Shown: positions 21,312 through 61,586 of the stretch, one piece after another
Position numbering within the stretch: the first letter of the stretch is position 1
How the letters are laid out: every line of letters starts with the position of its first letter
Source: an uncultured delta proteobacterium
Lineage (GTDB): Bacteria; Desulfobacterota; GWC2-55-46
Assembly (NCBI GenBank): GCA_963727865.1
Contig: CAVSHY010000014.1
Coordinates: 38,236 to 102,235, forward strand
Reading direction: 5' to 3'
Length of the DNA stretch: 64,000 nt
Made by a program: the position numbers and the translations under genes
The notes under the pieces: model-generated
The model's input: the letters and a program-made list of their open reading frames with translations, nothing else
The model's database searches: none
What the model was told of the DNA's origin: nothing

Positions 21312-22327
21312 CTACTTTACGAGGTAGGACCCGAGGGTCTCTCTTGTCCCCTCGAAAGTGGCGATAGTCTTCGCGCTCCAATCGGGTTTTACCCTGTATG
21401 CCGAAGGGGCCGCGTAGTAAGAGTCAACCGCCTCCCTCAGGACCCCTGTCATGGCGCTCACGTAACTTTTTGTCCGCTGCCTGCCTTCTATCTTGAAGGC
21501 GGCGGCTCCGGCCTCGATGAGATCGGGCACGATCCTGAGGATATTGAGCGACTCCGGGTCTTCAAGCACATATGAGACAGAGCCGTCGGGTTTGATGTAC
21601 CTTCCCTTGCAGCAGGTGGGGTAGGGCGAGGATTCCGTGGCGGAGAGCCTGTTCAGCAGAACGTTATTCAGCGTTATCGACATGCCGCCGTCCGGGTTAT
21701 TTATGAACCGGACGAAGCGAGAAGGGGAGCACGCCCCCGTGGTATTGGTCGACGCCCCTGTTACGAATGAAGAGAGGTAGCACCTCCCTTCGATGTTTAT
21801 GCAGAGGCCACCCTAGACGCGAAGACCTCTATCTCGACGTCGGTACGCTCCTTGAGTTCCTTTATCTCTTTTACGGTAAGGACGCGGGGGAGCACGACCC
21901 TTTTTATGCCGAAGTGCTTCTTATAGAAATTTATGCTTTCATAGTTGGACGCGCTTGCCTGGGTAGAGAGATGCAGGTTCGCGTCGGGGTATTTCTCCCT
22001 CGCGTATTTGAGTACTCCGAGGTTGGCTATTATGATCGCGTCCGCCTTGAGAGAGGCGGCCCTGTCCACGGCCGTAAACCACCTCGCGCAGGAATCCTCC
22101 TGGGGAAAGGTGTTTATGGCGACAAAGAATTTCCTGTTCTTCGCCCTTACGTATTTGATCCCTTCCTCAAGCTCCTTCGGGGTGAAATTGAGCCCCTCGA
22201 AGTTCCTCGCGTTCGTGTCGTCGTTGAAGCCGAGATATACGGCGTCGGCGCCGCTGTCTATGGCGGCCTTGAGAGAAGCGATATTCCCCGCCGGTGAGAT
22301 TACCTCGACTTTTTTCATGGTTTTCAA
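21312..22327 (-). pseudogene. peptidase U32 family, disrupted (frameshift near 21700-21800)
   Basis: The N-terminal 176 aa (21797-22327) has a U32 fold (..DAVYLGF..; ends EVFASRVASA*). The C-terminal part (21312-21683, ..AFKIEGRQ..) is in a different frame, and the expected HGALC..SGRC region is garbled. Confidence 0.55.
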
Positions 22328-22354
22328 AGGGTCAATTCCGGGTTGTTGATCTTC

Positions 22355-22771
22355 TTAAAACGGCACGTCGTCTATGTCAGACGGCGGGATTTCGCCTGCC
22401 GGAGGCTCAGCAGGCGAAGCGGCGGCGCCGCCTTCTTTCGGGGCGCTCCCTAACATCTGCATGGTGTTGGCGACTATCTCGGTCATGTACTTTTTGTTGC
22501 CGTCCTTGTCGTCCCAGCTCCGGGTCTGGATCTTACCCTCGATATAGACCTGCTTGCCTTTCGCAAGATACTCGCCGCATATCTCGGCGAGTTTTCCGAA
22601 GGTCACGATCTTGTGCCACTCCGTCTTGGTCTCCTTCTGGCCGTCCTTATTTACCCTTGTTTCGCTTGTGGCGAGCCTGAAGTTCGCCACGGCGGTCCCG
22701 CTTGGCGCATAGCGTATCTCAGGGTCCGCCCCGAGATTCCCCACGAGAATAACCTTATTGATCCCGGCCAT
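22355..22771 (-). CDS. ssb: single-stranded DNA-binding protein
   Basis: [18 protein letters not shown].. OB fold, Gly/Pro-rich tail ending DDVPF (short form of the usual DD(I/D)PF acidic tip). Confidence 0.9.
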
Positions 22772-23115
22772 ATTGACTCCTTTTTTATACAGAGTGTCAT
22801 TACTGTGCATACCTTCGTTGTTCCTCAGCTCGTCGCTGTGGCGCACGGTAAAAGTGCGCCACACTCCTCGCCATCGTCACGCCTCGGTCTGCTTTGTTCT
22901 GACGCTCTGTATGCGCAATTATTTATGACGCCGTGTTTAATAATAATTACTTGAGCAACATATTTAAAGTTTAAAGCTTTTTATCTGAAAAACAATTTAC
23001 CACCCAATGAGGCTTTACGCAAGTTTTTTAAACTGAAAGTCTTTGGCCTTACCTTGCTTCAGAAGGGTAAGTAAGAATTATCTTCAATATTTTGTTAACT
23101 TGCCGTATTATAATG

Positions 23116-23306
23116 AATTATTGATGTCTGTATTTCTAATGTCCTATTGATTAATTGCTATTATTGAATGACAAATAGCGGCTCATTTTAATCCCCCCTT
23201 GCCCCCCTTTAAAAAAGGGGGGATTAAAGTCCCCCTTTGGAAAAGGGGGATTGAGGGGGATTTGATGCGATAGATGCATGGGACATTAATTTTACAGTCT
23301 TCAATT
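23116..23306. mobile_element. 191-bp MITE-like element, copy 2
   Basis: See copy 1; same orientation, 2008 bp downstream. Confidence 0.6.
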
Positions 23307-23354
23307 ATTTGATTCCAGTGCCAAAATTTAATTAAAGGGAAACAAAGCAAAACA

Positions 23355-24063
23355 GTGTTCTTAAGGACATTATTCGTATGGGCCGTGGGGCTTCCCGTAA
23401 CGCTTGTCTTATTTCTGGCAGTCCTTCTTTCGCTTGTCATAGATAGAAAAGGCGGCTACATCCACGGAATAGGCTCGCTCTGGTTAAGGATAATACTCAA
23501 GCTTTCGGGCGTCAAAGTGACCGTAAAAGGGGTTGAAAACATCCCGAAGGCTGGCCCGGTGGTCTTCCTTTCGAACCACCAGGGCGCCTTCGATATACCG
23601 GCTTTACAGGGCTATATCCCGAAAAGGTTCAAGTGGGTGGCAAAGAGGTCCCTTTTTAATATCCCGGTAGTCGGCTGGTCGATGAGCCTCGCCGGATATA
23701 TCGCGATAGAAAGGGAGAGCGCCGGGAGCGCGTATAAGAGCATCGAAGCCGCGGCCGGGGAGATAAAAAAAGGGAAGTTCCGTCCTAATATTCCCGGAAG
23801 GCACGAGGAGCGTAACCGGGGAGCTCCTGCCCTTTAAACGCGGGGCCTTTATGCTCGCTTCACGGGGCGGTGCGCCGGTTATCCCCGTTGCCATTACGGG
23901 CACGAAGGATATAATGCAGAAAGGGAGCCTTTTAATAAGGCCTTCCGCCGTGACCATTTTAATAGGAAGCCCCATCCCGACTCAGGGCTTAAGCGAGCCG
24001 GAACTCAGGTCGCGGACTAAGGAGGCTATCGCGCGGCTTTTAAACTCTAAAGAACTTTCTTGA
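23355..24063 (+). CDS. plsC: 1-acyl-sn-glycerol-3-phosphate acyltransferase, with +1 bp insertion in A7 run at 23765-23771
   Basis: NHQGAFD (HX4D) motif in frame 1. After the poly-A run, frame 2 reads SSVLIFPEGTRSVTGELLPFKRGAFMLA (canonical PlsC block III/IV). Removing one A restores ..GEIKKGSSVLIFPEGTRS.. Confidence 0.8.
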
Positions 24064-24118
24064 GGATTATAAAAATTCATCATGGAAAACGGAGACTGAT
24101 TTGGAAAATAACGGAGAG

Positions 24119-27959: not shown

Positions 27960-28115
27960 CCACCTAAAATACCTTGGTTTTCCCGCTGACCCGGCTTCCT
28001 GAAGTAAAAAGAATTTACAAAAATCCGGATATCGTGTTATAATTGTTACAATTTGAATCCTGATAGTATTTTTGCGGGCAATTATAATGCTTACCGGAAC
28101 CTGCCTGCCCGTTAT

Positions 28116-28262
28116 GAAAATGCAACGCGAGCGCCCTGCCCGCTGCTTGCAGCGGGGTCAAGCGAGCGGATAGAATTTTTGAAGTCCTACGCGAGACGTC
28201 TCTAATTTTCAGGCGCCCCATGAAGGACTCTGAAAAATCCTTACATTTCGAAGATTCGCTGA
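28116..28262 (+). repeat. repeat family A copy (modular composite element)
   Basis: GAAAATGCAACGCGAGCGCCCTGCCCGCTGC..GCAGCGGGG hairpin module plus the AATAGAATTTTTGAAGTCCTACGCGAGACGTCTCTAATTTTCAGGCGCCCCATGAAGGA module. Copies at 30814-30985, 44285-44520 (inverted), 45368-45600, 58511-58640, 62868-62940 and 63040-63235, with partial copies elsewhere. Confidence 0.8.
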
Positions 28263-28322
28263 CCCCCCTGCGCTCTTTTTTTATAAGGCGGCAAAGAGTC
28301 TCTAAAAAGAACTCCGGCGACG

Positions 28323-28986
28323 ATGAGTAGACCCATTTTAAAATATCTTTTCATCTCTTTGCTCGTGGCCATTCCCTCGGCCTCTTTAGCCGGAATCAAC
28401 CCCGATATGGACCCGGCGCCCGCCGACAGGCCGTCTTATCAATATAAAAGGGAGCCGGGACAGCTGAAGCATAACAAATACGGCATGATCGACCCGTCCC
28501 CCGGACGTTATTTCGCTGCAGTTCCTCCCAAAAGACAAATACGGGTTTGTGGACTGGGTGAAGGCGCTGAATGACGGCGTAATCGCCCCCAGGGATTCAT
28601 ACCCCGGCACTCAGCCCGGAGAAGAACCGAAGGACGTCCCTGACATCCTCATAAAGGCCAAGCAAGACTTCATGCCCGATGTGATCTTCCCTCACTCGGC
28701 GCATTCGAAGTGGCTCAAGTGCGGCAACTGCCATCCTAAGATATTCGCTGAAAAGGCCGGAAAGACCCCGATATCGATGGTAGGCATCTGGAAAGGGCAG
28801 TTCTGCGGGAGGTGCCATGACAGGGTCTCGTTTCCGACCAGGAACTGTTTCAGGTGCCATTCGGCCCCCAAGACGTATAAAAATATAGGCGAAGGCGACG
28901 CGTCAAAGGATACAAAGTGGACTTCGAGGGAAGAAAAATTCTCGCGTTCAGCCCGAAAGCCGGGTAAGAAAGATATTCGGGAATAG
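28323..28986 (+). CDS. cytochrome c7-like triheme cytochrome, frameshifted at C5 run (~28495-28502)
   Basis: Signal peptide and N-terminus are in frame 1. The LQFLPKDKYGFVDWVKAL + FPHSAH + CGNCH, CGRCH, CFRCH module is in frame 2. Paralog of 12324-12980, where LPKDKFGLVDWAKSV aligns. Confidence 0.7.
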
Positions 28987-30093: not shown

Positions 30094-30816
30094 ATGCGGT
30101 ACTACCCAGTATTCCTTGACATAACCGGCCGGTCCTGCGTCGTGGCGGGCGGCGGAGTTGTAGCGGAAAGAAAGGTTCAGGGGCTTCTCAAGGCCCGCGC
30201 TTCCGTTACCGTTATAAGCCCTCGAGTCACGAAGGTTTTAGAGAAACTCGCCCAAAACGGAACGATCCGCCTCATCAGAAGAAAGTATAAGAAAGGAGAC
30301 CTTCTCGAAGCGGCCGTAGTTATTTCCGCTACCGCCTCAAAGGCCGTAAACAAAGAAATATTTGAAGAGGCCGCCCGCTTAAAGACCCTCGTAAACGTCG
30401 TCGATGACCGCGCGAACTGTAACTTTATCGTCCCTTCGGTTATTGACAGGGGGGGCCTTATAATAGCGATATCCACTTCAGGAAAGGCGCCCGGGCTTGC
30501 CAGGAAGATTCGGGAAGACCTCGAAAGATATATAGGAAGCGAGTATGAAGATTTTACCTCCATCGCAGGGGCCGTAAGGAAGAAGTTGTTGAAAAATGAA
30601 GCAAATCATGATAAAAAGAAAAGAGTTATCGAGGCCTTGGCGGATTCGCCGATCCTTGATTGGCTGAGGCGGGGAGATAGAGAGGTCAGGGAGATAAATT
30701 CTTTTCTTAAAGGGCTTCTCGGAGCCGGGTTTACTCTGTCGAGGCTCGGGGTCAAATTAAAAACCGGCCCTAAAGTGTCTAAAACAACAAAACCTAAAAA
30801 GGGGACAGGGGTCTGA
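30094..30816 (+). CDS. precorrin-2 dehydrogenase / sirohydrochlorin ferrochelatase (SirC/CysG N-terminal-like)
   Basis: MRYYPVFLDITGRSCVVAGGGVVAERKV Rossmann N-terminus typical of siroheme synthase N-domain. Confidence 0.7.
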   Translation: MRYYPVFLDITGRSCVVAGGGVVAERKVQGLLKARASVTVISPRVTKVLEKLAQNGTIRLIRRKYKKGDLLEAAVVISATASKAVNKEIFEEAARLKTLVNVVDDRANCNFIVPSVIDRGGLIIAISTSGKAPGLARKIREDLERYIGSEYEDFTSIAGAVRKKLLKNEANHDKKKRVIEALADSPILDWLRRGDREVREINSFLKGLLGAGFTLSRLGVKLKTGPKVSKTTKPKKGTGV

Positions 30817-31027
30817 AAATGCATGCGAGCGCCCTGCCCGCTGCTTTCAGCGGGGTCAAGCGAGCGAATAGAACTTTTAAAGTCCTACGCGAAACGCCGC
30901 TGATTTTCAGGTTCTCCATAAAGGACTCTGAAAAAACTTACATTTGGAAGATTCCCCGCAGCTTGCCGCGGGGAGCTTCAAATGCCGCGCCTTCGAAATG
31001 TGATCGCGCCGGATTTCTCCGATTATA

Positions 31028-31855: not shown

Positions 31856-31859
31856 AGAG

Positions 31860-33269: not shown

Positions 33270-34212
33270 TTGAAAAAGATCACGATCGGAACGCGCGGCA
33301 GCATGCTCGCGCTCTGGCAGGCGAACTGGGTAAAGTCGGAGATAGAAAAAAGAAACCCCGGCCTTGAAGTCGCCCTCGAGAAGATAAAAACCACCGGGGA
33401 TAAGATAACCGATGTCCCGCTCGCGATGGTAGGGGGGAAGGGGCTTTTCGTAAAGGAGATAGAAGAGGCCCTCCTTTCCGGCAAGGCCCAGCTCGCCGTC
33501 CACTCGATGAAGGACGTGCCGACGATATTCCCCGAGGGCCTTCATCTCAAGGCCATAACCGAGAGGGAAGACCCGAGGGACGCTCTTTTCAGCAGAAATG
33601 ATATAAAGCTACTCGACCTCCCGAAAGGGGCGCGGATAGGCACTTCGAGCCTGAGAAGGCAGGCGCAGATACTGAATAAGAGGCCTGATTTTCAGATACT
33701 TCACCTGAGGGGCAACCTCGATACCCGCATGAAGAAGCTCGATGAAGGGCGACTTCGACGCCATAATACTCGCGGGGGCCGGCGTAAAGAGGCTCGGATG
33801 GGCAAGTAGGATCACCGAATTCATCCCGCCGGAAGTCAGCCTTCCGGCGATAGGCCAGGGGGCGCTCGGCATAGAGACCCGCACCGAAGATAAATTCATA
33901 AACGGCCTTGTAGAGTTCTTTAACCATCCTGAGACCTCTGCGGCCGTAAGGGCCGAACGGGCGCTGTTAAAGAGGCTCGAGGGCGGGTGCCAGGTCCCGA
34001 TCGCGGCTTACGGAGAAGTCAAGGGCGAGAGCCTCAGGCTTACGGGCCTTGTCGCGTCCACCGACGGGAAGACCATCGTAAAAGACGTAATCACCGGGGA
34101 TAGGGACGAGGCAGAGGCCATTGGGGTAACTCTCGCCGAAAAGCTCCTCAAGATGGGGGCATGGGATATCTTAAAAGACCTCTACGAAGTAAACCCTCCG
34201 GGCGGGGCGTAA
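33270..34212 (+). CDS. hemC: porphobilinogen deaminase (hydroxymethylbilane synthase), +1 G in GGG run near 33745
   Basis: IGTRGS.LALWQA.. N-terminus. Frame switch between ..[12 protein letters not shown] and [16 protein letters not shown]; removing one G gives the canonical [13 protein letters not shown]. Confidence 0.85.
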
Positions 34213-34421
34213 AGACCTTTAAATTTTTGAGAGGACCGTCCGCCCCCAACCCTATCCACGCAAGGAGCGGGATAAGCGCCAGCCTGTGGAATATCGAAGG
34301 GTCACGGATATCCATGGGGGGGGGCGCCAAAGACAGTACGCAGGATTTTTTTAAACAAACCGGGTTTTTCTTCGGGAACGTTTACGTTCATTTAAACCGC
34401 CTTATTTTTAAAGTGGGCAGT

Positions 34422-34538
34422 TGAACGGGTGCTCGCCGCAATCCCGCCGCTTTAGAGGCGGGTCAAGGCGAGCTATAAAAATGACAATCACCTTACCGTG
34501 AAGAATCCCCGTCATTTATGGCGGGGTTCTTCAATATG
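34422..34538 (+). repeat. repeat family B copy
   Basis: Near-identical to 16008-16125 and 45712-45815. Confidence 0.75.
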
Positions 34539-37859: not shown

Positions 37860-37990
37860 ATTTTTGGATTGAAGAACTCCCGCATAAATGCCGGAGTTCC
37901 CGATGGTAAGGTATGTCATTTATATTCGCCGCGCCTTGACCCGCCCGGCCTTTTAAGGGCGGGCAAGGCGGGCGTTCCATTCACCGCACA
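37860..37990 (-). repeat. repeat family B copy (inverted orientation, diverged, compensatory stems) between cbiA and the ThiC-family gene
   Basis: On the - strand the core ATATAAATGACATACCTTACCATCG is flanked by hairpins CGCCTTGCCCGCCC..GGGCGGGTCAAGGCG and GAACTCCGG..CGGGAGTTC. Other copies have GAATCCCCG..CGGGGTTC at the same position. Confidence 0.6.
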
Positions 37991-39369
37991 TCTTTACAAA
38001 ACCGCTCGCGAACGCCGGGTTACTCCCGAAATGGATGTGTATGTAGCTCGCGAGAGTGTTTTTGTAGAGGTAGCCTTCCGAAACCTCTCTCCTCTCCCTG
38101 TTTTTAAAACTGAAAATCCTTTTTATCCTTGAAGGCGGATTTGAGATTTCCGAGTAGTGGTATTCGTGGCCCCTTACTGTGCCGCCGGCGGGGAGTATGG
38201 GAGACGGCTTGATTTGAACCTCCCTGTACCCGAGAGCCTTTCTCCTAAAAAGCATCCGCGATCTCCATGGGAAAACGCCGCACTGGGAATAACTCTTTCC
38301 GCCCGTGTCCACGATAGATTTTCCGAGGTACATAAGCCCGCCGCACTCCGCGTATATCGGCAGCCCCATTTTAGAGAGGCTCTTCAGTTCCTCCCTCATT
38401 GAAAGGTTAGCCTGAAGCTCTTTAGCCCGGAGCTCCGGGTACCCGCCGCCGAGGTAGACCCCGTTTATTCCAGGGGGCAGACCCTTATCTTTAAGGGGGC
38501 TGAAGAAAACAATGCGGGCGCCGAAGCCCCTCAATAGCTCAAGATTTTCTTCGTAATAGAAACAAAACGCCTTATCCCGCGCGACGGCTATACTTACCGC
38601 GGGCTTCCTGCATTGCGCTTCTTCTAAACCCTTTAATCTTACGCGTCCGCTTTGCGGCAATCCTTTCAGAAGGCTTTTTAGATCGATATTTTTTTCAATG
38701 AACGAGGCGGCCTTCCCTATAAACCTTTTCCACGCCTTTCCTTCGAATGTCCGCGGAAGTAACGAGACCGAGGTGGCGTTCCGGCATCGATAAAGACTCG
38801 TCCCTCGGCACGCAGCCGAGCACCCTTGCGTTCGAATCACGCGGCGCCGAGTCCCTTAAGACCTTGCAATGAGCGGGGCTCGCGACCTTATTAAAGACGA
38901 CCCATCTGACATTAACCTGAGGGTCGAAACTCTCAAACCCCTTTATGATCGCCCCGGCGCTTCTCGCTGTTTTTGAAGCGTCAATTACAAGCAGAACCGG
39001 GAGATTTAGGAGCTTTGAAAGCCCTGAGGTCGAGCCCTCGTCGCTCAGGCCGTCTTTGCCGTCAAAAAGGCCCATCACCCCCTCAATGACCCCTATATCC
39101 GCCCCTGTCATATTCCTGAGGAAGGTATCTCTTACTCCACGGTTCCCCATCATCCAGGTATCGAGATTATATGAAGGCCTTTTCAGGAGCGCGCTGTGGT
39201 GGCCGGGGTCTATGTAATCGGGACCGGCCTTAAAGGGCTGGACAATAAGGTTTCTCCGTCTGAGCGATTCCATAATGCCGAGGGTAATTAGGGTCTTGCC
39301 GGAGCCGCTGCTAACGCCCGCAATGATAAAGGCGGAAGGGTCCGTAAAGTTTTTTTTCTTTTTTTCCAT
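37953..39369 (-). CDS. cbiA: cobyrinate a,c-diamide synthase (CbiA/CobB), frameshifted near 38720-38760
   Basis: N-terminal ATPase domain (GVSSGSGKT) in ORF 38695-39369, C-terminal GATase domain (..AECGGLMYL..) in ORF 37953-38840; the frames switch within an AAAGG/AAAAGG-rich stretch. Confidence 0.8.
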
Positions 39370-41986: not shown

Positions 41987-42514
41987 CTATTTCATCTTAA
42001 GGGCTATGCCCGCGGCTACAAAAAAAACCTCTTGAGCGGCGTTCGCTATCAATTGGTTTATTGTCCCCGACAGGTCTCTGAATCTCCTCGAAAGAGGGTT
42101 TTCAGGGACGATCCCGAGCCCGAGTTCATTCGATACCGCTATAACGCTTGCTCCCGTACGCTTGCACGAGGCGGCCAATTTTTCAGCCGCTTCTTTAATC
42201 ACGGCGTCGCTCAGGCCCGCTTCAATGAGGTTCGTAAGCCAGAGCGTAAGGCAGTCGATGAGTATTACCCCGCAATCTTTTAAGCCGTCGACCTTTCCCT
42301 CTATATCCTTCGGCTCTTCGACGGTCGTCCAGTCCGCGCCGCGGTCTTTTTTATGGTTATTTATCCTCTCTTCCATCTCGGAATCGAGGGCCTCGGCCGT
42401 CGCTATACAGGCCCTGGGGCCGGGGAGTCCCTCGGCGAGCTTAAGCGCGAACCCGCTCTTGCCGCTTCTCGCACCGCCGAGCACGAAAACGAATTTTTTA
42501 TCAGGGTTCGGCAC
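41987..42514 (-). CDS. cobU: adenosylcobinamide kinase / adenosylcobinamide-phosphate guanylyltransferase
   Basis: 175 aa; Walker A GGARSGKS at N-terminus. Confidence 0.85.
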
Positions 42515-43189: not shown

Positions 43190-43400
43190 CGACCCTCTCC
43201 CTCGGAAGGCCCTACTCCATACGGTCAGGCAGGTCTCCTGGCTCGCGGGTCATCCTACTCTCTTTTCCTTCCCGGCCCTGTCGGCCAGTGGCAGTTAGAT
43301 AAGATTTCGTCGCCGCTTACAGTTGCGGGGCAGCTCCCGATTCTACGGGATTCCCTTTTGGCCCGGTTGCCGGGCACCTGACAGCGAGTAATCAGATTTA
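43190..43400 (-). ncRNA. cobalamin (AdoCbl) riboswitch aptamer
   Basis: On the - strand AAGGGAATCCCGTAGAATCGGGAGCTGCCCCGCAACTGTAAGCGG ... CTGCCACTGGCCGACAGGGCCGGGAAGG: the conserved GGGAA/UCC, GCCCCGCAACUGUAA and B12-box GCCACUG ... GGGAAGG elements are in canonical order. Confidence 0.8.
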
Positions 43401-43456: not shown

Positions 43457-44254
43457 CTATTTCCCCCGCACACCCTCGTCAAGGAACTTTCTTACGGCCT
43501 CCACGCTCCTCTGGATCATGTTTTCTCCATGAGGCTCCACGGTATATACGGGTTCATTGGGGCAGGCTTTAAGGAACTTGAAAAAAGACCCGAAGTCGAT
43601 CGTGCCTTCCCCGACCGGAAGGTGGTCGTCAAGTTTACCGAAATTATCGTGGAGATGCACTTCCGCTATGAAAGGCCCCAGCTCTTTAAACCATTCCTCG
43701 ATATCCACTTTTGAGAATATCCGCAGGTGCCCGGAATCTATGCAGACCCGAAAGTTCGGGGAATTGATCCTCGCGACGAGCATCTTGAGCGTATCGGGTG
43801 TTTTTTCAAATATGTTCTCGGCGGCTATGACGGCGTCGAGCCTTTCGGCCTCTTTTACGAAGCGGGGCCATGTCTTAAGGCTCTGCTCAAGCCAGAGGCC
43901 GGCGTCTCCGCGGTAACGCCTTTCGTTGTACCCGGCGTGCAACACAACGTTTCGCGGCCTCAGCCAGGAAACGACTTCAAAAACCCTCTTATACCTCTCT
44001 ACCGTGGAAAGCCGTTGATTTTCATCGGCGCTTCCGGGGTTAATATCTATATACGGCCCGTGCATCGTAACCCGCAAAGAGCGCTTCCCGAACTCCTCCC
44101 TTATTTCCATGAGGTCCCCGGGGTCGGCGGTCTCCAGGAACCGGCCGTCGATATACACTTCCGGGTTTATGCCCATGTCAAGGATATCTCCAAGCCTCTC
44201 AAGGAGAAGAGGGTAGGGTATATGAACCTGAATTTTTTTTTCTTCCACTTTCAA
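43457..44254 (-). CDS. sugar phosphate isomerase/epimerase (xylose-isomerase-like TIM barrel, AP endonuclease family 2)
   Basis: 265 aa; TIM-barrel pattern with metal-ligand His/Asp/Glu positions (..VHLHDN.., EPHGE). Confidence 0.65.
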   Translation of the reverse strand: MKVEEKKIQVHIPYPLLLERLGDILDMGINPEVYIDGRFLETADPGDLMEIREEFGKRSLRVTMHGPYIDINPGSADENQRLSTVERYKRVFEVVSWLRPRNVVLHAGYNERRYRGDAGLWLEQSLKTWPRFVKEAERLDAVIAAENIFEKTPDTLKMLVARINSPNFRVCIDSGHLRIFSKVDIEEWFKELGPFIAEVHLHDNFGKLDDHLPVGEGTIDFGSFFKFLKACPNEPVYTVEPHGENMIQRSVEAVRKFLDEGVRGK

Positions 44255-44284: not shown

Positions 44285-44520
44285 TTTGAAGCTCCCCGCA
44301 GCTTGCTGCGCTTAATCTTCCAAATGTAAGTTTTTTCAGAGTCCTTTATGGAGAACCTGAAAATAAGCGGCGTTTCGCGAAGGACGTTAAAAATATCCTT
44401 CATGGGGCGCCTGAAAATGAGAGACGTCTCGCGTAGGACTTTAAAAATTCTATTCGCTCGCTTGACCCTGCTGCAAGCAGCGGGCATGGCGCTCGCGTTG
44501 CATTTTCAATAACGATTAAA
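44285..44520 (-). repeat. repeat family A copy (inverted)
   Basis: Reverse complement of the 45368-45600 arrangement; the six-frame ORF 44251-44487 inside it is judged spurious. Confidence 0.8.
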
Positions 44521-44723
44521 TCGGAAAAACAGATATTCTTCAAGGGAAATATAAGAAGGATTAAAAATTATAGCGATTCATGTGAAATGTTTTTTCTCTG
44601 CTATACTTCTCTATATTAATAAAAGAAGAGAGGACGCGATTATATCCCGAAATGCGGATAATCGCCAGTTCAGTGGAAGCGTCGAAGATAGAAGGAGATA
44701 AAAAAACAGGGAGGAGAAAAGGG

Positions 44724-45308
44724 ATGAAAAAAATACCGGTTTTTATCATTGCGGGAATTTTTTCTTTAAGCCTCGCGGCCAAAACCGAGGCCGCTCAAAG
44801 AGGGATAAAATCGATGTCCAGGGAAAAGCTCATAGCCCTCGCGATGAGCGCGGCCCCGCCGCGGATATCGAAGGACGCGACCATCATGATACCGGGGGCG
44901 GACGGAAAACTTGTCGAGGCCCGGAAGGGGACGAACGGGTTCACCTGCATCCCTGATATCGACGGCCAGGAGGTCCCTGATCCGATATGCGCGGATGAGG
45001 CCGCAACGCAATTCCTTATGGACATGATGAATAAAAAGGAGAAGCCGACCAATACGGCCCCAGGCGTCGCATACATGGCAAAAGGGGGATGGCACTGGGA
45101 AAAGGACGGAAAGGTGGTCATGAATACGGGGGAGGCCGGGGCAAAAAGAGTAAGTGAGCCGCCCCACTGGATGATTTTCTGGTCTTTTGACCCGGGTAAG
45201 ACTATGCTCCCGACCATACCGGGGAAATTCGGGACGTATATCATGTTCGAGAAAACGCCTTATGCCCATTTAATGGTATATCAGGACCCCGGAAAGTTAA
45301 CAAAGTAA
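44724..45308 (+). CDS. secreted hypothetical protein
   Basis: MKKIPVFIIAGIFSLSLAAKTEAA signal peptide; no recognisable domain. Confidence 0.45.
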   Translation: MKKIPVFIIAGIFSLSLAAKTEAAQRGIKSMSREKLIALAMSAAPPRISKDATIMIPGADGKLVEARKGTNGFTCIPDIDGQEVPDPICADEAATQFLMDMMNKKEKPTNTAPGVAYMAKGGWHWEKDGKVVMNTGEAGAKRVSEPPHWMIFWSFDPGKTMLPTIPGKFGTYIMFEKTPYAHLMVYQDPGKLTK

Positions 45309-45367
45309 ATATATCTGACAGGACGCGTAAAGGCCCGTTTTAGGGGAGGCTTTTGTTTTTTTAGCTG

Positions 45368-45600
45368 AAAATGCAACGCGAACGCCCTGCCCGCCGCAAG
45401 CAGCGGGATCAAGCGAGCGAATAGAATTTTTGAAGTCCTACGCGAGACGTCTCTAATTTTCAGGCGCCCCATGAAGGATATTTTTAACGTCCTTTGCGAA
45501 ACGCCGCTTATTGTCAGGTTCTCCATAAAGGACTCTGAAAAAACTTACATTTGGAAGCTTCCCCGCAGCAAGCTGCGGGGAAGCTTCCAAATTTTTGACT
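45368..45600 (+). repeat. repeat family A copy (full modular set)
   Basis: Modules A, B, C and D in order; the best reference copy. Confidence 0.8.
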
Positions 45601-45711: not shown

Positions 45712-45815
45712 GGGTGCGCCGCAACCGCCGCTTTAGAGGCGGGCAAGGCGAGCTATAAAAATGACAATCACCTTACCGTGAAGAATCCCCGTCATTTATG
45801 GCGGGGTTCTCAATT
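45712..45815 (+). repeat. repeat family B copy
   Basis: See 16008-16125. Confidence 0.75.
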
Positions 45816-49952: not shown

Positions 49953-50396
49953 TTACGGATAGTCGAGTTCCTCTATCCTGACGACCGTATCCCCCTCGAA
50001 GGTTACGGCGCGTATGAACTGGTTTGAGCCGAGGTTATAATACCATCTTTCCACGGTTATGACAGCCCCGGTCTGAAGCTCGGTATCGGCCGTCCCGTCC
50101 GGTTTTCTCTTGATTCTCTGTTTCGCCTCAAAGCTCCTTATCCCCACGGTTTCCCTGTAGAAAGGCTCTCCGCAGCGCAGGAGCACTACCGGTTTCGTAT
50201 CCCCGGTTGATACGATGCGCTGGCCGCAGTACATCGAATCCGCCAGTGCCGGGCCCGCGAGGGGTAGGGCGAGGAAGGCGAGGGTTATAATAAGGAGCCT
50301 TTTTTTAATGTTAATCAGGATGCGCTCTCCGTGATTTGGCCTGGTATGCCGTAAATAAAGTCTCAGGCGAACCAGCGCCAGAATATTATTTTTCAT
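49953..50396 (-). CDS. DUF2845-like periplasmic protein
   Basis: CGQRIVSTGDTKPVVLLRCGEP...WYY pattern; start uncertain. Confidence 0.45.
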   Translation of the reverse strand: MKNNILALVRLRLYLRHTRPNHGERILINIKKRLLIITLAFLALPLAGPALADSMYCGQRIVSTGDTKPVVLLRCGEPFYRETVGIRSFEAKQRIKRKPDGTADTELQTGAVITVERWYYNLGSNQFIRAVTFEGDTVVRIEELDYP

Positions 50397-50553
50397 GGAC
50401 GCCCCCTTGACGCTGTCCCCCGGTTCATCCAAGCATTTCAATTCTATCAGGCTATCGGTGAATTGACAACCCGGGGAGGGGGGAGACGGGAGACGGAAGG
50501 TTGCGCGCAGAGGTTGCCACTTAAATAACCTCCGAGTACTTGGCGAGGCCCGG

Positions 50554-50889
50554 TCACCTTTTCTCGTACCCGGCCGGCTGGGTCGTGGCGGCCGATACGA
50601 TGAGGTCTGTGGTCGCCACTATCTTGTGCCATACGCCCTTCGGCGCGATAGTTATTACCCCGGGCTTGAGCTGAACCGACTCCTCCCTGCCGTCGTCGGT
50701 ATAGCAGACCCCTTCGCCCTCGTGCGTGAAAAAGACCTGGTCCCCTTCCGGGTGCCTGTGGTAATCGAGGAGAGTGCCGGGCCTGAAATAATACGTGACC
50801 TGCACGATGCGTTCGGTCTTGAGATTTGTGACCTGGTTTACTTCATTGTCCTTGAATGCTTTTTTCTCAAAGACATTCACGCCCTGCAT
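50554..50889 (-). CDS. cupin domain protein
   Basis: HRHPEGDQVFF ... GVWHKI two-motif cupin signature. Confidence 0.7.
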   Translation of the reverse strand: MQGVNVFEKKAFKDNEVNQVTNLKTERIVQVTYYFRPGTLLDYHRHPEGDQVFFTHEGEGVCYTDDGREESVQLKPGVITIAPKGVWHKIVATTDLIVSAATTQPAGYEKR

Positions 50890-50924
50890 AAAGACCTCCT
50901 TCAAAAGATTTATGGGATAAATCG

Positions 50925-51185
50925 CTACCCCCCGTTATCATCTTCCCTTCCCGCGTTCAGCTTTTTCCTTAGCGCCGATAGTTCCATCCGTGTTTTTATC
51001 CGCCCAGGGAGCGAGGCCAGGAAGGCCGCGACCGCCCCGGCGGCGAAGGCGAGCATCATGACAAGGGCAAGCGACCCCGTAAATGACCATTTGAGGAAGG
51101 TTACATCCACGGGCCTGGCGTTCTCGATCGAAAAGACGGCGACAACGGCGGCCAAAATTATTGAAATGATGAAAGATAGCCTCAT
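50925..51185 (-). CDS. LapA/DUF1049-like small inner-membrane protein
   Basis: 86 aa, two TM, charged C-terminal tail. Confidence 0.45.
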   Translation of the reverse strand: MRLSFIISIILAAVVAVFSIENARPVDVTFLKWSFTGSLALVMMLAFAAGAVAAFLASLPGRIKTRMELSALRKKLNAGREDDNGG

Positions 51186-51439
51186 GTTTTCAGCGCCCCT
51201 CCCGTATTGCCCTGTGAACTTTTATCAAGGCAAGGATACACTGAAAACCATAAATTATCAATACAAAGCGCGGTACCCCCGCTGTCAATCTACCCGCTAC
51301 CCGGCGAAAAAAATGAAGAGAAGAAATCCCGAAGAAGGCCGGGGCGATAGATTGATGGGATGTTTACGGATAGAAAAAAGTTTGAAGGGGGAAAGGGGGA
51401 CGGGAAAGATTTTTGAGAGTATTCGTTAAGGAAAGTATA

Positions 51440-51748
51440 GCCCGCCTTTATGCCGGGGCGATGAAAGATTCAGGGATGTAAATTTACGGAGACGGAGATG
51501 ATAGCCTTTCAGTTGAAAGATTCCCGGTGTTTTAAGATACGGGAATTCGTTCACCGCGCGTGTGCAAAGGGTGATGCCGTCGATCCCCGGCAGCTCGATG
51601 CCGGTTACGACGAGGCCGTAGTTTGAAAGGCGGAGCTTTGAGAGCGCGTCGAGGCCGCCGGGCGAGTTTTCGACCGCGTGAGCGCCACGGCGTAGAGGAG
51701 CCTTATCGGGTCGTTATCGTCCGCCACGAGTATTCTTTTGGCGGACAT
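51440..51748 (-). CDS. stand-alone receiver (CheY-like) domain, frameshifted near 51690
   Basis: MSAKRILVADDNDPIRLL in one frame, then ..GLDALSKLRLSNYGLVVTGIELPGIDGITL.. in the next frame; no ORF appears in the track because each piece is short. Confidence 0.55.
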
Positions 51749-51924
51749 AAAATTCGGTCTATCCTTAGATGGCGTTAGCCATGCCTGATGGCTTGAGTTT
51801 TCAGTAAGAGATAATTATACGGGCAGAGCGTTTACAGATAGGTTACGGATTGAAAATGCGTAGCGAGAGCCCTGCCCGTAGCAAGCCGCGCTTAATCTTC
51901 AAAGGCCAACCCCGGATTCTTTCT

Positions 51925-52807: not shown

Positions 52808-54244
52808 ATGTCAGCTAGGGAGTGCCGGAAGGTGCGTTTACGTAGCCGCTCATCCATCATAAAGGGCTTAAGGATAACCCTCTATCTCTTTTCAGCCCTG
52901 TTCTTATTCTGCTTTTATCCCGGGATGAAAGAGGCGGACGCCGGTTCTCTCGTCTCTGTCGCGCCGGAGGGTGCGTCGCCTTATGTGACCGTTGACATTA
53001 CGGGCACCGGGTTTGACCCGGTCGCGTCAAACAACAAGGTCATTTTCACGGACGCGTCGGGGGTCTCCGCGGCAAATACCCCGAGAACCGTTATTTCCAT
53101 AGACCCCGGGTCCAACTTAAGCCGCCTCGCGGTCCCGGTCCCCGGGAGCCTCCCTTACGGGAGGGCCGCCATAAAGGTCATTAACAATACGACAGGGGAG
53201 GGAATTGACGGACTTTCAATCGACGTCGTAGGCATAACGCTTGAGGAGATGACGCCGGCGGCGAAGGGGACGAACCTCGATGTCCGCATCGCGGGGACCC
53301 CGAACTTAAGGTTTGTGGCCGGAGAGACGGTGGCGTCTTTCGGAGAAGGAGTTAAGATAAATTCAGAAACCGTCGAGTCCCCGACGAGCATCGTGGCGAA
53401 TATTACGGTATCCCCCTCAACCGAAGCCGGAACGAGAAGCATCGGAGTGATGACAAAGGACCAGACGGCGGTCCTTCTCTACGGGTTTACCGTCGAGTCC
53501 AGGGGTCTGCCCGCTTTCGCGACCGCGAGCGCCCCGCTGGAAGTAAACCCGGCGGCGGCTCCGGCTCCGCCAATAGAAATGGACCACGGCGCCGGCGTAA
53601 TCGTCAGGGATTACGGAGATACTTTTTTTTACAGCCAGCTCGGCGCAGAGTCCTGCGAGGCGCCCCCGGCCATGACCATGACGGCGTATAACGCCGGAGT
53701 ACCCGCGTCTTACGCTGAGAATAAGACTCTTGGCGCATCCGGGAAGAACCCTCCGGCGCAACCGAAATCCTCGAGTTCCGATGATAAAGAATTTATCGCC
53801 TTCGCGGAACATAACGGCTCCGCGGGGCGGTCAGCCGATGGCTCGGAGGCCGCGCCTCTCGCGTCTGCCGGAGACAGCGGCGCTAAAAATCCTGTTGTTA
53901 AAGACGCCCCTGTAAGTAGCACGCCCGCCCGTCACGCCGCGGCCGCGCCTCTCGCGTCTGCCGGAGACAGCGGCGCGAAAAATCCTGTTGTTAAAGACGC
54001 CCCTGTAAGTAGCACGCCCGCCCGTTACGCCGCGGCCGAACCTGGCATCAGTCCCGTTGGGGCGGCGATCCCCGCTCAGGCGCTTACGACGGCTGTGAAG
54101 AACCCCGGGGGCCTTGTCGAGTCGATCCTTCCATGGTCGCCCTTCGGGCAGGACGGAGAAGGCGGCGTCATGAGAAGAATGTTACTCGCGTTTCTCGCGC
54201 CCTTCATCCTCATCGGATACCTGATATTCATCTTTTGGAGATAA
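52808..54244 (+). CDS. large secreted protein with two IPT/TIG-like repeats, a 30-aa near-perfect tandem duplication and C-terminal hydrophobic anchor
   Basis: Signal peptide; TVDITGTGFDP..NKVIF-type TIG strands; 90-bp units at 53850-53939 and 53940-54029 differ by 2 nt; C-terminus GEGGVMRRMLLAFLAPFILIGYLIFIFWR. Confidence 0.5.
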   Translation: MSARECRKVRLRSRSSIIKGLRITLYLFSALFLFCFYPGMKEADAGSLVSVAPEGASPYVTVDITGTGFDPVASNNKVIFTDASGVSAANTPRTVISIDPGSNLSRLAVPVPGSLPYGRAAIKVINNTTGEGIDGLSIDVVGITLEEMTPAAKGTNLDVRIAGTPNLRFVAGETVASFGEGVKINSETVESPTSIVANITVSPSTEAGTRSIGVMTKDQTAVLLYGFTVESRGLPAFATASAPLEVNPAAAPAPPIEMDHGAGVIVRDYGDTFFYSQLGAESCEAPPAMTMTAYNAGVPASYAENKTLGASGKNPPAQPKSSSSDDKEFIAFAEHNGSAGRSADGSEAAPLASAGDSGAKNPVVKDAPVSSTPARHAAAAPLASAGDSGAKNPVVKDAPVSSTPARYAAAEPGISPVGAAIPAQALTTAVKNPGGLVESILPWSPFGQDGEGGVMRRMLLAFLAPFILIGYLIFIFWR

Positions 54245-54620: not shown

Positions 54621-54644
54621 CGCTGCGCCTCCCGTAAGGCCCTG

Positions 54645-56429: not shown

Positions 56430-56607
56430 TAAAAAATCGGATATAGCATTAATCTCTCCGGGGTCACCATGATTTTTGCCGCTGAGATTGACTTTATTCC
56501 TTTCATCCGGTTATGTCAACAGTTGTTCCGAAGAAAAAAGGAGGTCAATAAGACCCTTTAAAAAGACCCGCCCAGGTGGTATAAATGGTATACGTGTGGT
56601 ATATATA

Positions 56608-57057: not shown

Positions 57058-57359
57058 CGAAAGGGGGGTTTAAATGCCGTACATACCGGATATTTCCCGG
57101 AAAAGAATTGATGACGCGATAATTGGCCTCGAACTCAGCGCCGGGGAGATGGCTTACCTTTTCACAATGGTTGTACTCAGGTTTACCGAAGGTAAGCAAA
57201 ACTACGCCGCTTACGCGGAGGCCCTCGGGGTTCTTGAGACGACGAAGCTCGAGCTCTATCGCCGGCTCGTGGCCTCTTACGAGGACAGAAAGATGGAGGA
57301 GAACGGGGACGTATTCCCGAAATAACCGCGGCTTAATTCCAAAAAAAAGGAGGTAAAGA

Positions 57360-57819
57360 ATGAAGAAGAGGATATTTATAGCGGCCTTCGCCCTTTTGCT
57401 CGCGATGCCGGTCCTGGGGCAGTGCCGGGGACCCGGCGAACGGGGCGGACGCGGCTAAGGGCGAGGAGGCAAAGGCAGGACTGACCCAGGAGGCTACCGA
57501 AGGGTGGGTCACGGTAAAAATAACATACAAGAACCCCGAGGAGTGGAGGCCTGTCTTCGACGTGACCATGGATTCCAGCTACGGTGACCTCGACAATTAC
57601 AGGTGGAACGAGATCGCTATACTCTACGACGACCTCGGGGGGGTCTACCTGCCGGCCGTCCAGTCGTCGGAAGGTTCAGGCCGGCACAGGATAGCCACGA
57701 TTAAATTCCCTGAGGCGAACGCCACATCGGCGAATTCCTTCGAACTTATGATCAAGGGGGTCTCCGACGTGGGCGCGAGGGTTTTTAAATTCGAGACCAG
57801 AAGGGGCGCGGCGAAGTAG
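57360..57819 (+). CDS. secreted hypothetical protein, frameshifted in GGGG run (~57410-57435)
   Basis: Signal peptide MKKRIFIAAFALLLAMPVLG in frame 1, mature domain (..WVTVKITYKNPEEW..) in frame 2, no ATG in frame 2. Confidence 0.5.
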
Positions 57820-58165
57820 CGGAAGGGATTTCAAAGAAGCGCGGAGCTTAAAAATATCGTAAAGGGACAGGGTCTTTATAGACCCCGTCCCTTTCTTTTT
57901 ATTGATTGAAGGACACTCATCCACGCCTCAATTATCCATATCCTGGATTAAAGCCCGATCCGATTAGAGTCTTAAAACGGGCCAGACCTGCCCAGGGCTA
58001 CGCATAAATGTAAGGAGAATGAAAAAAAGTCATAGCCCCTCCGTAAAAAGCGCAAATAAATCAAGTGGTTAATGTCTGGCACGATGATTGCGTTTCACAT
58101 AAACGGGGCCTGGCGTGGGAGGAATAATTTACACACACGGCTCTTTAACAGGAAAGGAGGCGCGA

Positions 58166-58330
58166 ATGAACCAGGAAGTCTGCAAGAAATGTGACGCCAA
58201 TAATTCTTCTGTCTGCGACCATTGCGAGGCGATATACGCTCTTGAGGACGTTCAAACGGACTTCGACCCTGATGAACCCGATCCTAAGACCCGTTGTAAC
58301 GGCTGCGTCTGCGCCGGGGAGAAAAAATGA
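58166..58330 (+). CDS. small Cys-rich protein (7 Cys in 54 aa)
   Basis: Strong RBS AAAGGAGG; CKKC..CDHC ... CNGCVC; ATGA-coupled to a 46-aa amphipathic peptide gene (58327-58467). Confidence 0.45.
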   Translation: MNQEVCKKCDANNSSVCDHCEAIYALEDVQTDFDPDEPDPKTRCNGCVCAGEKK

Positions 58331-58467
58331 AAAAGATGGAAGAAGAGATAGGAATCTTTGCCGAGAGGTTGCAGTCCGCCGATTTTTTTAAAGCCGCGGC
58401 CACCCTCGCGGCGCTTGCGGCGATGACGGTCTACCAGGCAAAGATTATCGCGGCGATATTCATGTAA
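58327..58467 (+). CDS. small hydrophobic/amphipathic peptide, translationally coupled to upstream Cys-rich gene
   Basis: MKKMEEEIGIFAERLQSADFFKAAATLAALAAMTVYQAKIIAAIFM; start overlaps the upstream stop. Confidence 0.35.
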   Translation: MKKMEEEIGIFAERLQSADFFKAAATLAALAAMTVYQAKIIAAIFM

Positions 58468-58510
58468 AGAGGGAAACCGCAGCGGCATAAGTTAACGCGC
58501 GTTAACAGAT

Positions 58511-58640
58511 CGGGCTGTGAAAATGCAACGCGAGACGCCTCTCCTTTTCTGGCGCCCCATAAAGGACTCTGAAAAAACTTACATTTGGAAGATTCCCGGC
58601 AGCTTTTCTGCGGGGAGCTTCAATCTTTTCCCCGATCTGC
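58511..58640 (+). repeat. repeat family A copy
   Basis: Modules A, C and D. Confidence 0.75.
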
Positions 58641-58683
58641 CGGGACGCTTTATCCCTCTTAACCTTAAACGAAGTCGAGCCAT

Positions 58684-60261: not shown

Positions 60262-60265
60262 AACC

Positions 60266-61081
60266 GTGAAGAACGAACCCCTGACAAAAACAAGAATTTC
60301 CGGTCCTGGGAAGCTGACGCTCCTCTTTCTCGCGGCTTTCGCGTTTTCTTTTTTTGACGCGCGCGCGGGAAGCGCCTTTGAACTCGTGGGCCTGCCCGGC
60401 TCCACCTGGGGCACGGTCACGCATGACGCGGACGGCATAAGCGGCGCCGGGACGATGGGCTTTGTGAACCAGGGCATAGACTGGACGAAACTGCCCGGCG
60501 GCGTCACTCTTAATACCTTCGCGGAATACAGGTGGAGGCTCCGCTCAAAGAACAAGGACTTCTACAATACCGAAGGCCCGGCCCTGGGGGTCGAACTCAG
60601 GAAGTCGTATTTCCGGCTCGGCGTCGACTACTACTGGGAACATTTCACGGAGATCAACGCGACCTCGGAAAACAAGGAAGTCTACCTCGCCTGGTATTAC
60701 GACTGGGACCTGGGCAAGTTTTTCGCTTCGCCTTATTTCATGGGGCTTCCGGGCTCGACCTGGGGCATCCTCACCTATGACATGAACGGCATCAACGGCT
60801 CCGGGGCCCTCGGTTACGTCAATCAGGGGATAGACTGGGTAAAGCTCCCCGGGGACGTCGTCTTCAATACATTCGTGGAGTACAGGCTCCGCGCCCGCGA
60901 GAAGAACACCGCCTTCTACGACGCCGAGGGCCCTGCCGCGGGCATAGAGTTCAGGAAATGGTTCCTGAGGGCAGGGGCCGATTATTACTGGGAACGCTTC
61001 ACCGGGCTCCATAAGGACTCGAACCACATGCAGTACTATGTCAGCTGGTATTACTCGTGGGATCTCTTGAGGCTTAAGTGA
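60266..61081 (+). CDS. secreted protein built from two ~130-aa tandem repeats
   Basis: Signal peptide; each half reads GLPGSTWG..GI.G.G..G.VNQGIDW.KLPG.V..NTF.EYR.R.R.KN..FY..EGPA.G.E.RK...R.G.DYYWE.FT; alternating aromatic pattern suggests beta-rich, possibly outer-membrane. Confidence 0.45.
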   Translation: MKNEPLTKTRISGPGKLTLLFLAAFAFSFFDARAGSAFELVGLPGSTWGTVTHDADGISGAGTMGFVNQGIDWTKLPGGVTLNTFAEYRWRLRSKNKDFYNTEGPALGVELRKSYFRLGVDYYWEHFTEINATSENKEVYLAWYYDWDLGKFFASPYFMGLPGSTWGILTYDMNGINGSGALGYVNQGIDWVKLPGDVVFNTFVEYRLRAREKNTAFYDAEGPAAGIEFRKWFLRAGADYYWERFTGLHKDSNHMQYYVSWYYSWDLLRLK

Positions 61082-61114
61082 GGGGAAGAGTTTTTAAGAT
61101 GAGGAAGTAGAAAA

Positions 61115-61586
61115 TGGAATACCGCGACACTGCGTCATTTGGAAAACGCCAAGAGTTTATCGCTATAGCCGAGTTATTGCGGCAAGGGTTCGACGATATT
61201 TGACCTTGGTGGATGATCAACAAATCGACTGTGTTGTCAGACAGTTGGTAAACAAGCGTCTGGTCTATTTGGACATCCAAATCAAAGCCAGATCATCTAA
61301 AGCAAGACGAAAAAATGCTGGAACATTTGCCGGTATGGAAATTCGAGAGCCCAGAAAAAATTTCTTCTTCATTTTTTATTCAGAGCAGGCTCGTTGCTAC
61401 TGGTCTCGGCCTTCCTCCATCCTGACACTTATAAAAGAGGCTAGTGAAAACAAAGCAGGAAAGAATAAAGGAAAGTACAGCATTGTATTTACCACCTATA
61501 GCCTTAAGACCGGTGAGGTTAGTCCTCGTCCACATTTTTCCAAATACCAAGATAATTTTCAATTACTGAGGGACATTACATTATAA
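61115..61586 (+). pseudogene. low-GC (~42%) foreign gene, frameshifted; PD-(D/E)xK-like nuclease candidate
   Basis: MEYRDTASFGKRQEFIAIAELLRQGFDDI* then the next frame continues LTLVDDQQIDCVV..YLDIQIKARSS..; GC is far below the window average. Confidence 0.4.

Follow-up and report, generated by a model that had tools for sequence, protein, structure and literature searches.

Frame changes in six conserved genes of a 64-kb bacterial window are likely consensus errors of a single assembly

Six genes in the 64-kb stretch of DNA that we analysed (the window) are broken by extra single bases, and these are very likely consensus errors of a single assembly, with the organism's real genes intact. They encode a U32 peptidase, PlsC, a c7-type cytochrome, HemC, CbiA and a small secreted protein (Table 1). 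A three-frame reading of the window found a frame change in all eight genes that an earlier note had listed. The note had taken the changes for assembly errors and not for signs of a pseudogene-rich region. This view stands for the six genes, which are intact in independent assemblies. It does not extend to the other two: a response-regulator receiver-domain (REC) piece is best read as a real relic, and a low-GC gene has no close relative. The extra bases in the six genes are specific to this assembly and have no counterpart in independent assemblies, which argues for a sequence-quality artefact and against gene decay.

Table 1. Features of the window with a frame change or a run-length difference. 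Bases in brackets are inserted.
Feature	Position	Strand	Length in relatives (aa)	Difference in the window
U32 peptidase / UbiU-like gene	21312..22327	-	334-337	two 1-bp insertions 6 nt apart, at 21816 and 21810 (+ strand)
plsC (1-acylglycerol-3-phosphate acyltransferase, PF01553)	23355..24063	+	235 (one relative)	extra A in run 23765-23771
c7-type multihaem cytochrome	28323..28986	+	220 (one relative)	extra C in run 28498-28502
hemC (porphobilinogen deaminase)	33270..34212	+	313	extra A at 33752, GGGCG[A]CTTC, outside homopolymer
cbiA/cobB (cobyrinate a,c-diamide synthase)	37916..39369	-	483	two 1-bp insertions, at 38745 and 37965-37968
Small secreted protein	57360..57819	+	152 (six relatives)	broken inside the signal peptide
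Response-regulator receiver-domain relic (REC)	51429..51760	-		at least one frame change, C-terminal half truncated
Conserved hypothetical protein of ~155 aa, no Pfam family (low-GC gene)	61114..61586	+		one base missing at ~61195-61197, GAC GA TAT
Zn-ribbon gene (FmdB-like, PF09723)	20628..20963	-		frameshifted C-terminus at ~20755-20763; outside the range of the earlier note and unlisted there
PEGA lipoprotein gene start	56431..56436	-		run-length difference, coding strand T6 here and T7 in three relatives (+ strand A6/A7)

A comparison with close relatives, as the earlier note had proposed, found all six genes intact in contigs that are 98.1-99.9 % identical at the DNA level and come from as many as six other assemblies. 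The intact copies were taken from GCA_041643055.1, GCA_041643075.1 and GCA_041643115.1 and from the Logan assemblies of ERR12035932, SRR23936503 and SRR23936504. These relatives are different strains, 0.1-1.9 % divergent from the window, and at the DNA level the break sites of plsC, the c7 gene and the U32 gene are covered by one relative each. In base-level alignments every one of the eight gene-breaking differences is an extra base in the window (two each in the U32 gene and cbiA, one each in plsC, the c7 gene, hemC and the secreted-protein gene), and no frameshift was seen in the relatives. Deleting the extra bases gives proteins of the relatives' lengths, and the repaired CbiA (483 aa) and HemC (313 aa) are 98-99 % identical to those of the relatives. 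The truncated products P0004, P0007, P0013, P0014, P0015 and P0024 are recorded solely from the 130,634-bp source contig, and the other members of their 90 % clusters are full length. The pN/pS ratio is 0.19 for the broken genes and 0.23 for their intact neighbours, which indicates that selection on the broken genes is not relaxed. More distant relatives could be consulted for part of the window. The closest match among GTDB species representatives has 59 % amino-acid identity, so that the source species has no representative in that set, and a scan of JGI metagenomes returned genus-level relatives only (HemA 80-84 %), with synteny confined to 30-34 kb; hemC is intact in each of these that covers it. 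Exact-protein look-ups of SSB, RadC, a 302-aa dehydrogenase and a 271-aa protein gave no match, probably owing to a different choice of start codon or to differences between strains.

The alignments show which bases are in excess. For plsC the earlier note had predicted that one A less would repair the gene, and relative L006 indeed combines a run of A6, in place of the window's A7, with an intact gene. The same relative has C4 where the c7 gene of the window has C5. On its coding strand the U32 gene reads GCGT[C]TAGGG[T]GGCC in the window versus GCG TTA GGG GGC, or A L G G, in a relative. In hemC, which is intact in relatives L001, L003 and L018, the repair put forward previously was the deletion of one G. 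This proved to be mistaken, as the relatives read KLDEGRFDAIILA and not the 13 residues of that repair, and the surplus base is an A. Of the two insertions in cbiA, the one at 38745 makes the coding strand read ATT[C]GAA. The second lies near the 3' end of the gene and was absent from the earlier list. Here the window reads GCCTTG, relative L003 GCTTG and relative L004 GCCTG, so the window holds the alleles of both relatives. The secreted-protein gene reads CAGTGCC in the window versus CTG-GCC in all six relatives. The base at 57421 is substituted and a T has been added at 57423, both outside the neighbouring G runs.

It had also been claimed that the two halves of each broken gene keep family-typical sequence. 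Pfam matches run on across the break in the U32 gene (PF01136 positions 4-90, then 92-221), in plsC (PF01553 positions 1-92, then 90-131) and in cbiA (CbiA/AAA_26 domain, then GATase_3), and the Cytochrome_C7 match lies in the second half of the c7 gene. The description as an otherwise intact gene fails for the REC piece, which is truncated and below the family threshold.

Our search for further broken genes in the window added the Zn-ribbon gene, the tail of which is probably another consensus error. Its protein has 111 aa in the window versus 80 aa in relatives, ending ...KPDCSGCC..K, and the change looks like a 9-nt duplication minus one G. The PEGA lipoprotein gene differs in run length at its start, which the earlier note likewise missed. 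The sole effect of this difference is the loss of an upstream alternative start; the signal peptide (MDLKKK...) and the lipobox are untouched. The pentose-phosphate genes at 0.1-16 kb are in a single frame and have full-length matches to GTDB representatives, and the sole candidate for a frame switch turned out to be a shadow ORF on the opposite strand. Checks gave no support for frameshift chains that had been suspected at 10.7-12.6 kb and near 44.3 kb. A codon-usage frame plot gave hits at 41990/42529 (cobU-cobO) and 49956-51221 (DUF2845/cupin/LapA), which are separate intact genes by Pfam, and we regard this plot as too coarse. A Pfam search over 45.5-49.7 kb, a region without a close relative, revealed no obviously split gene.

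The earlier note placed the breaks in runs of A, C or G and attributed them to homopolymer-biased read error. The placement is correct for plsC (A7) and the c7 gene (C5) but not for hemC, cbiA, the U32 gene, the secreted-protein gene or the low-GC gene. The attribution is for the most part unsupported. Just two of the eight insertions extend a run of at least four bases, and the lengths of such runs differ between the window and its relatives in only 10 of 952 cases. An assembly error is thus supported, but a homopolymer-biased read error mostly is not. On the explanation of the earlier note, a long-read assembly left unpolished would contain run-length miscalls of the classical kind, and the slippage-like over- or under-calling of runs would cause the frameshifts. 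We consider this unlikely, although several observations speak for it. Two run extensions (plsC A6 to A7, c7 C4 to C5) are more than random insertions would give (3.2 % expected per insertion, P = 0.025). Run lengths also differ outside the broken genes, with G6/G9 at 34316, A6/A9 at 44233, C8/C7 at 29808, T6/T7 at 62941 and the A7/A6 difference at the PEGA site (~56430). Furthermore, the errors that remain in long-read assemblies are most often wrong homopolymer lengths (PMC8812927). However, five of the eight gene-breaking insertions consist of a base that is unlike either neighbour. Equal lengths in 942 of 952 runs of at least four bases and in 107 of 114 runs of at least six (seven differ) would be unexpected for an unpolished assembly prone to homopolymer errors. 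The plsC and c7 insertions themselves can be equally well explained by a doubled synonymous third-position allele, AAG/AAA and CCG/CCC respectively.

This second explanation may apply to all of the insertions. At all eight sites the inserted base is a synonymous alternative of an adjacent base, against 45 % when insertions are placed at random in these genes (P = 0.0016), in a test that we devised post hoc with the data already seen. The presence of two alleles is directly visible at one site, 37965-37968, where the window carries those of L003 and L004, and the other sites rest on the statistical test. The closest strain, L015 (ERR12035932, 99.8-99.9 % identical), has neither of the extra alleles at the site in the secreted-protein gene. 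Together, the synonymous neighbours at eight of eight sites and the two alleles at 37965-37968 suggest an artefact of consensus building or polishing at positions that vary between strains. The most likely origin of the insertions, as we infer it, would be that reads of co-existing strains were merged during consensus or polishing. A mostly synonymous SNP between two strains could then have been written out as both alleles in tandem, which would add one base and shift the frame. Candidate allele pairs include CGC/CGA giving CGAC, ATT/ATC giving ATTC and AAG/AAA giving AAAG. Two such tandem-allele events would lengthen a homopolymer by chance, and these would be the cases seen by the earlier note. 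Consensus and polishing errors are known where collapsed haplotypes are heterozygous or vary between strains. The likeness is that each extra base lies precisely at a position that allows a synonymous alternative allele; the difference is that this is shown directly at one site here, the remainder being the post hoc comparison.

The number of errors can be set against other assemblies. We count about 10-19 window-specific 1-bp indels in the approximately 45 kb compared, which is roughly 20-40 per 100 kb. Short-read-polished long-read metagenome assemblies have been reported to carry 22.8 indels per 100 kb versus less than 2 for short-read assemblies (PMC6487183), and we take this agreement in order of magnitude as a point in favour of assembly error. 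The frameshifts are unevenly spread: the first 20.6 kb have none and the following 40 kb about 10 (Poisson P ~0.006). Errors arising at a uniform rate would not be expected to cluster in this way, and local differences in coverage or strain mixture must be assumed. In other assemblies the same strain-diverse population yields contigs of 14.5 kb at most, and from this we conclude that the 130,634-bp source contig most likely comes from a long-read or hybrid metagenome assembly. The window resembles the gene-fragmenting indel errors described for long-read and hybrid (meta)genome assemblies (Kastor, PMC12007338; PMC6487183) in several ways: single-base indels cut conserved genes into two neighbouring ORFs, the breaks occur in one assembly only and vanish when close references are consulted, they number tens per 100 kb, and the contig is far longer than short-read contigs of the same microdiverse population. 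It differs in that its spectrum is dominated by insertions that lie mostly outside homopolymers, whereas the usual errors are in homopolymer length (PMC8812927).

The REC piece aligns with relative L010 over 701 nt with two substitutions and without any indel, and this indel-free match identifies it, at the level of sequence comparison, as a real pseudogene remnant shared between strains and not an assembly error. After in-silico repair it still covers only positions 1-65 of the 111 of PF00072, with 28.5 bits against a cut-off of 30.2 bits. A lesion common to relatives, or further decay, would mark a true pseudogene, and we found this in the REC relic alone and in none of the six compared genes. 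The relic resembles the true pseudogenes of decaying bacterial genomes in being shared with an independent relative, frameshifted, truncated and below the family threshold, while the other broken genes are unlike them, with one or two lesions each, unrelaxed selection and intact copies in relatives. It demonstrates that real decay and artefact can be told apart by comparison with relatives. The low-GC gene belongs to an island that is specific to the window and without a close relative (61091-61877, 46 % GC). It reads GFD-GA-YLTL, as opposed to GFDVYLTL in its homologues, and once it is repaired, 98 % of its length aligns with more than 1300 homologues, which are about 155 aa long. Its break is probably an assembly error as well, although a real mutation would also be compatible with the data.

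It could be argued that the frameshifts in the six genes are real too, through recent pseudogenisation, in a mutator lineage or in a defective variant complemented within the population. The population does tolerate real relics, as the REC remnant common to L010 illustrates, and its strains commonly differ in intergenic indels and in mobile elements. With relatives 0.1-1.9 % divergent, a strain-private mutation is possible at any single site. Nevertheless, this explanation is very unlikely. It would require at least eight frameshifts on one lineage, versus none in about 75 kb of the relatives' sequence, and it would affect hemC and plsC, which are normally indispensable, with selection not relaxed. 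Spontaneous +1 mutations nearly always duplicate a neighbouring base in a run. The non-templated bases and the double lesions 2-6 nt apart fit neither this natural spectrum nor a mismatch-repair-deficient one, and the presence of both alleles of the relatives' SNP at 37965-68 also speaks against real mutation. If the extra bases were real, a strain of a cytochrome-rich anaerobe would carry frameshifts in hemC, plsC, cbiA, the UbiU-like gene and others simultaneously and would have to survive by cross-feeding, strain-swarm complementation or recoding (for example slippage at the plsC A7), a scenario that we find hardly credible. Programmed recoding, by ribosomal frameshifting or transcriptional slippage that restores the products, is extremely improbable: a seven-A run is the kind of tract known for RNA polymerase slippage, which makes plsC the obvious candidate, and a shift there would yield the same GEIKKGSS... 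protein, but the closest relatives and all homologues are single-frame, the shifted configuration is not conserved, no slippery motif is common to the eight sites and most of them have no run at all.

If the extra bases are consensus errors resembling SNP alleles in tandem, most of them would escape a homopolymer-aware correction but would be found by one that is guided by a reference or by the reading frame. The synonymous-neighbour signature of the inserted base could act as a read-free diagnostic for consensus errors from strain mixtures. The value of these observations is practical and not biological. Within 40 kb, six to eight genes that look like pseudogenes need to be repaired or flagged, since gene counts, pseudogene calls, completeness and metabolic reconstruction would be wrong if the contig were taken at face value. 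Such a reading would score the synthesis of haem, cobalamin and phospholipid in this organism as broken.

A three-frame reading confirms the earlier note's claim that eight genes change frame, a change being present at all eight places. In Pfam searches, consecutive parts of one protein fall into adjacent ORFs: PF01136 positions 4-90 and then 92-221 in the U32 gene, PF01553 positions 1-92 and then 90-131 in plsC, and the nucleotide-binding domain followed by GATase_3 in cbiA. For the c7 cytochrome, Cytochrome_C7 is matched in the downstream ORF. Taken together, the reading and the split domains establish that the frame changes exist.

Relatives from the same population were recovered by exact-protein look-ups with intact neighbouring genes, in three NCBI metagenome assemblies (GCA_041643055.1, GCA_041643075.1, GCA_041643115.1) and in the Logan assemblies of ERR12035932, SRR23936503 and SRR23936504. 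Their identity to the window is 98.1-99.9 %, and the alignments jointly cover 16.3-45.5 kb and 49.7-64 kb. The six genes that can be compared (U32, plsC, c7, hemC, cbiA and a small secreted protein) are whole in all relatives, and at base level every gene-breaking difference is an extra base on the window's side. Removing the extra base from hemC, or both from cbiA, gives proteins of 313 and 483 aa that are 98-99 % identical to those of the relatives. The true hemC protein reads KLDEGRFDAIILA at the lesion, where the extra base is an A, and the repair sequence proposed earlier was wrong in detail; hemC is also single-frame in genus-level relatives from JGI metagenomes. In a cluster look-up, the truncated products are recorded only from the source contig, which has 130,634 bp and is present in NCBI and ENA. 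All other members of their 90 % clusters are full length. Among them are eight U32/UbiU-like proteins, 334-337 aa long, and five full-length or near-full-length CbiA proteins, four with 483 aa and one with 471. An additional C-terminal frameshift in a Zn-ribbon gene near 20760 replaces the conserved ...KPDCSGCC tail, giving 111 aa in the window vs 80 aa. A T7/T6 difference on the coding strand (A7/A6 on the plus strand) at the start of a PEGA lipoprotein gene is harmless. Two homopolymers of the window exceed those of the relatives by exactly 3 nt: G9 vs G6 at 34316-34324, intergenic, and A9 vs A6 at 44233-44241, which adds one Lys near the AP_endonuc_2 N-terminus. These differences may be real or technical.

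Features of the window and their changes; allele pairs are a fitted pattern
Feature	Position	Change or context (coding strand for sequences)	Alleles; window	Length in relatives
U32	21816 and 21810	GCGT[C]TAGGG[T]GGCC, two insertions; relative A-L-G-G	TTA/CTA; TCTA and GGG/GGT; GGGT	337 aa
plsC	23765-71	A6 to A7	AAG/AAA; AAAG	235 aa
c7 cytochrome	28498-502	C4 to C5	CCG/CCC; CCCG	220 aa
hemC	33752	GGGCG[A]CTTC	CGC/CGA; CGAC	313 aa
cbiA, first event	38745	ATT[C]GAA	ATT/ATC; ATTC	483 aa
cbiA, second event	37965-68	51 nt ahead of stop
Secreted protein	57421 and 57423	CTG-GCC to CAGTGCC; 6/6 relatives identical here	CTG/CTT; C(A)GT	152 aa (six contigs)
REC piece	51429-51760	minus strand; within stretch colinear with L010
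Low-GC gene	inside 61091-61877	strain-specific 790-bp island, 46 % GC; lacking in L010 and L011
Dispersed repeat	28115-28266, 30813-30982, 44285-44508, 45366-45581, 58515-58605, 63094-63239

The earlier note placed the breaks in A, C and G runs and blamed homopolymers, an explanation that proves largely wrong. Only the plsC and c7 insertions, two of the eight, extend a run of at least 4 bases; the expectation is 3.2 %, so the enrichment is mild (P = 0.025). Across the regions compared, window and relatives agree in length for 942 of 952 runs of at least 4 bases and for 107 of 114 runs of at least 6, a profile unlike that of an unpolished, homopolymer-error-prone assembly. On these alignments, the frameshifts are mostly not a homopolymer problem.

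The response-regulator receiver (REC) piece had been listed among the erroneous frameshifts, but it is a real decayed remnant common to the window and a relative contig (L010); the stretch around it is colinear with L010, with no indels and 2 substitutions in 701 nt. Unrepaired, it matches only PF00072 positions 24-66, under the curated cut-off; repaired, it covers receiver-domain profile positions 1-65 of 111 at 28.5 bits. The low-GC gene lacks one base at GFD-GA-YLTL, where homologues read GFDVYLTL, through either an error or a mutation, and its repaired product has >1300 homologues of ~155 aa. This family is very widespread, unannotated and without a Pfam family; its invariant residues D34-D35...D54-x-Q-x-K58 recall PD-(D/E)xK nucleases.

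Programmed recoding is ruled out, since the shifted configuration is not conserved. Between error and gene decay, six points favour error. Besides this lack of conservation, frameshifting insertions are asymmetric (eight in the window vs none in ~75 kb of relatives' sequence), pN/pS is 0.19 in the broken genes vs 0.23 in 37 intact neighbours, and the targets include hemC and plsC, which are normally indispensable. Natural +1 mutations are overwhelmingly duplications inside runs, but in 5 of the 8 insertions the added base is unlike either neighbour; U32 carries two insertions 6 nt apart, and in the secreted gene a substitution adjoins the insertion. Finally, window-specific 1-bp indels occur at roughly 20-40 per 100 kb compared, within the range of short-read-polished long-read metagenome assemblies (22.8 per 100 kb; <2 for short-read assemblies; PMC6487183). 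A long-read origin of the source contig would fit its 130 kb, as the same microdiverse population elsewhere yields contigs of at most 14.5 kb.

How the extra bases arose is suggested by the second cbiA event, the one site with direct support. Here two relatives differ by a synonymous C/T SNP (Leu; GCTTG in L003, GCCTG in L004), and the window reads GCCTTG, both alleles in tandem. The inserted base is the adjacent base's synonymous alternative in 8/8 cases vs 45 % of random insertions in the same genes (P = 0.0016, in a test devised after the data were seen). The tandem alleles and the 8/8 count suggest that reads from co-existing strains were mishandled during consensus building or polishing, although at the secreted-gene site neither extra allele occurs in the closest strain. 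Such a step would have worked by writing both alleles of a strain-level SNP in tandem and so adding a base.

The events are unevenly spread. No frameshift was detectable in 1-20.6 kb against distant homologues and, for 16.3-20.6 kb, a relative contig (ERR12035932; 4 mismatches, 0 gaps); the pentose-phosphate genes align full-length and single-frame to distant homologues. About 10 events in the 40 kb after 20.6 kb vs none before is improbable under a uniform process (Poisson P ~0.006), hinting that coverage or strain mixture varies from place to place.

The region also carries repeats and mobile elements. A dispersed intergenic family (~90-216 nt, 68-96 % identity between copies) looks like a MITE/REP-like element and had no Rfam match at the gathering threshold; the copies at 44293-44508 and 45366-45581 are inverted relative to each other over 216 nt (93 %) and flank a small ORF (44652-45308). 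A 69-nt element occurs at 16053-16121, 34467-34535 and 45747-45815 (identities 100 %, 100 % and 96 %). Its copy at 34467 lies within a ~104-bp segment (34425-34530) missing from two relatives (L001, L003), so this small mobile element is polymorphic for insertion among strains. A 147-nt direct repeat (21152-21298 and 23161-23307, 99 % identity) stands either side of the U32-SSB gene pair. In L001, homology to the window (~35613) ends inside a ChlI/Mg-chelatase-like gene at a 583-aa serine recombinase (Resolvase/Recombinase/Zn_ribbon_recom; L001 4470-6221); a mobile element is inserted in that strain. A 93-nt tandem repeat (53848-54033; 31 aa, 98 % identity) lies within a 487-aa secreted protein, and blastn alignments imply about one additional unit in L010, either in-frame copy-number variation or assembly repeat collapse. 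A cobalamin riboswitch (RF00174, 122 bits, 43211-43396, minus strand) precedes the cobO-cobU-cobT-cobS-cobC-cbiA-thiC cluster, a B12 salvage operon that ends with thiC.

Judged by comparison of sequences, the frameshifts truly belong to the sequence as deposited but probably not to the organism. No real biological feature is involved and the value is mainly methodological. The earlier advice against counting pseudogenes fails for the REC relic and stands for the six genes intact in relatives: six, probably eight, broken-looking genes should not be counted as pseudogenes.
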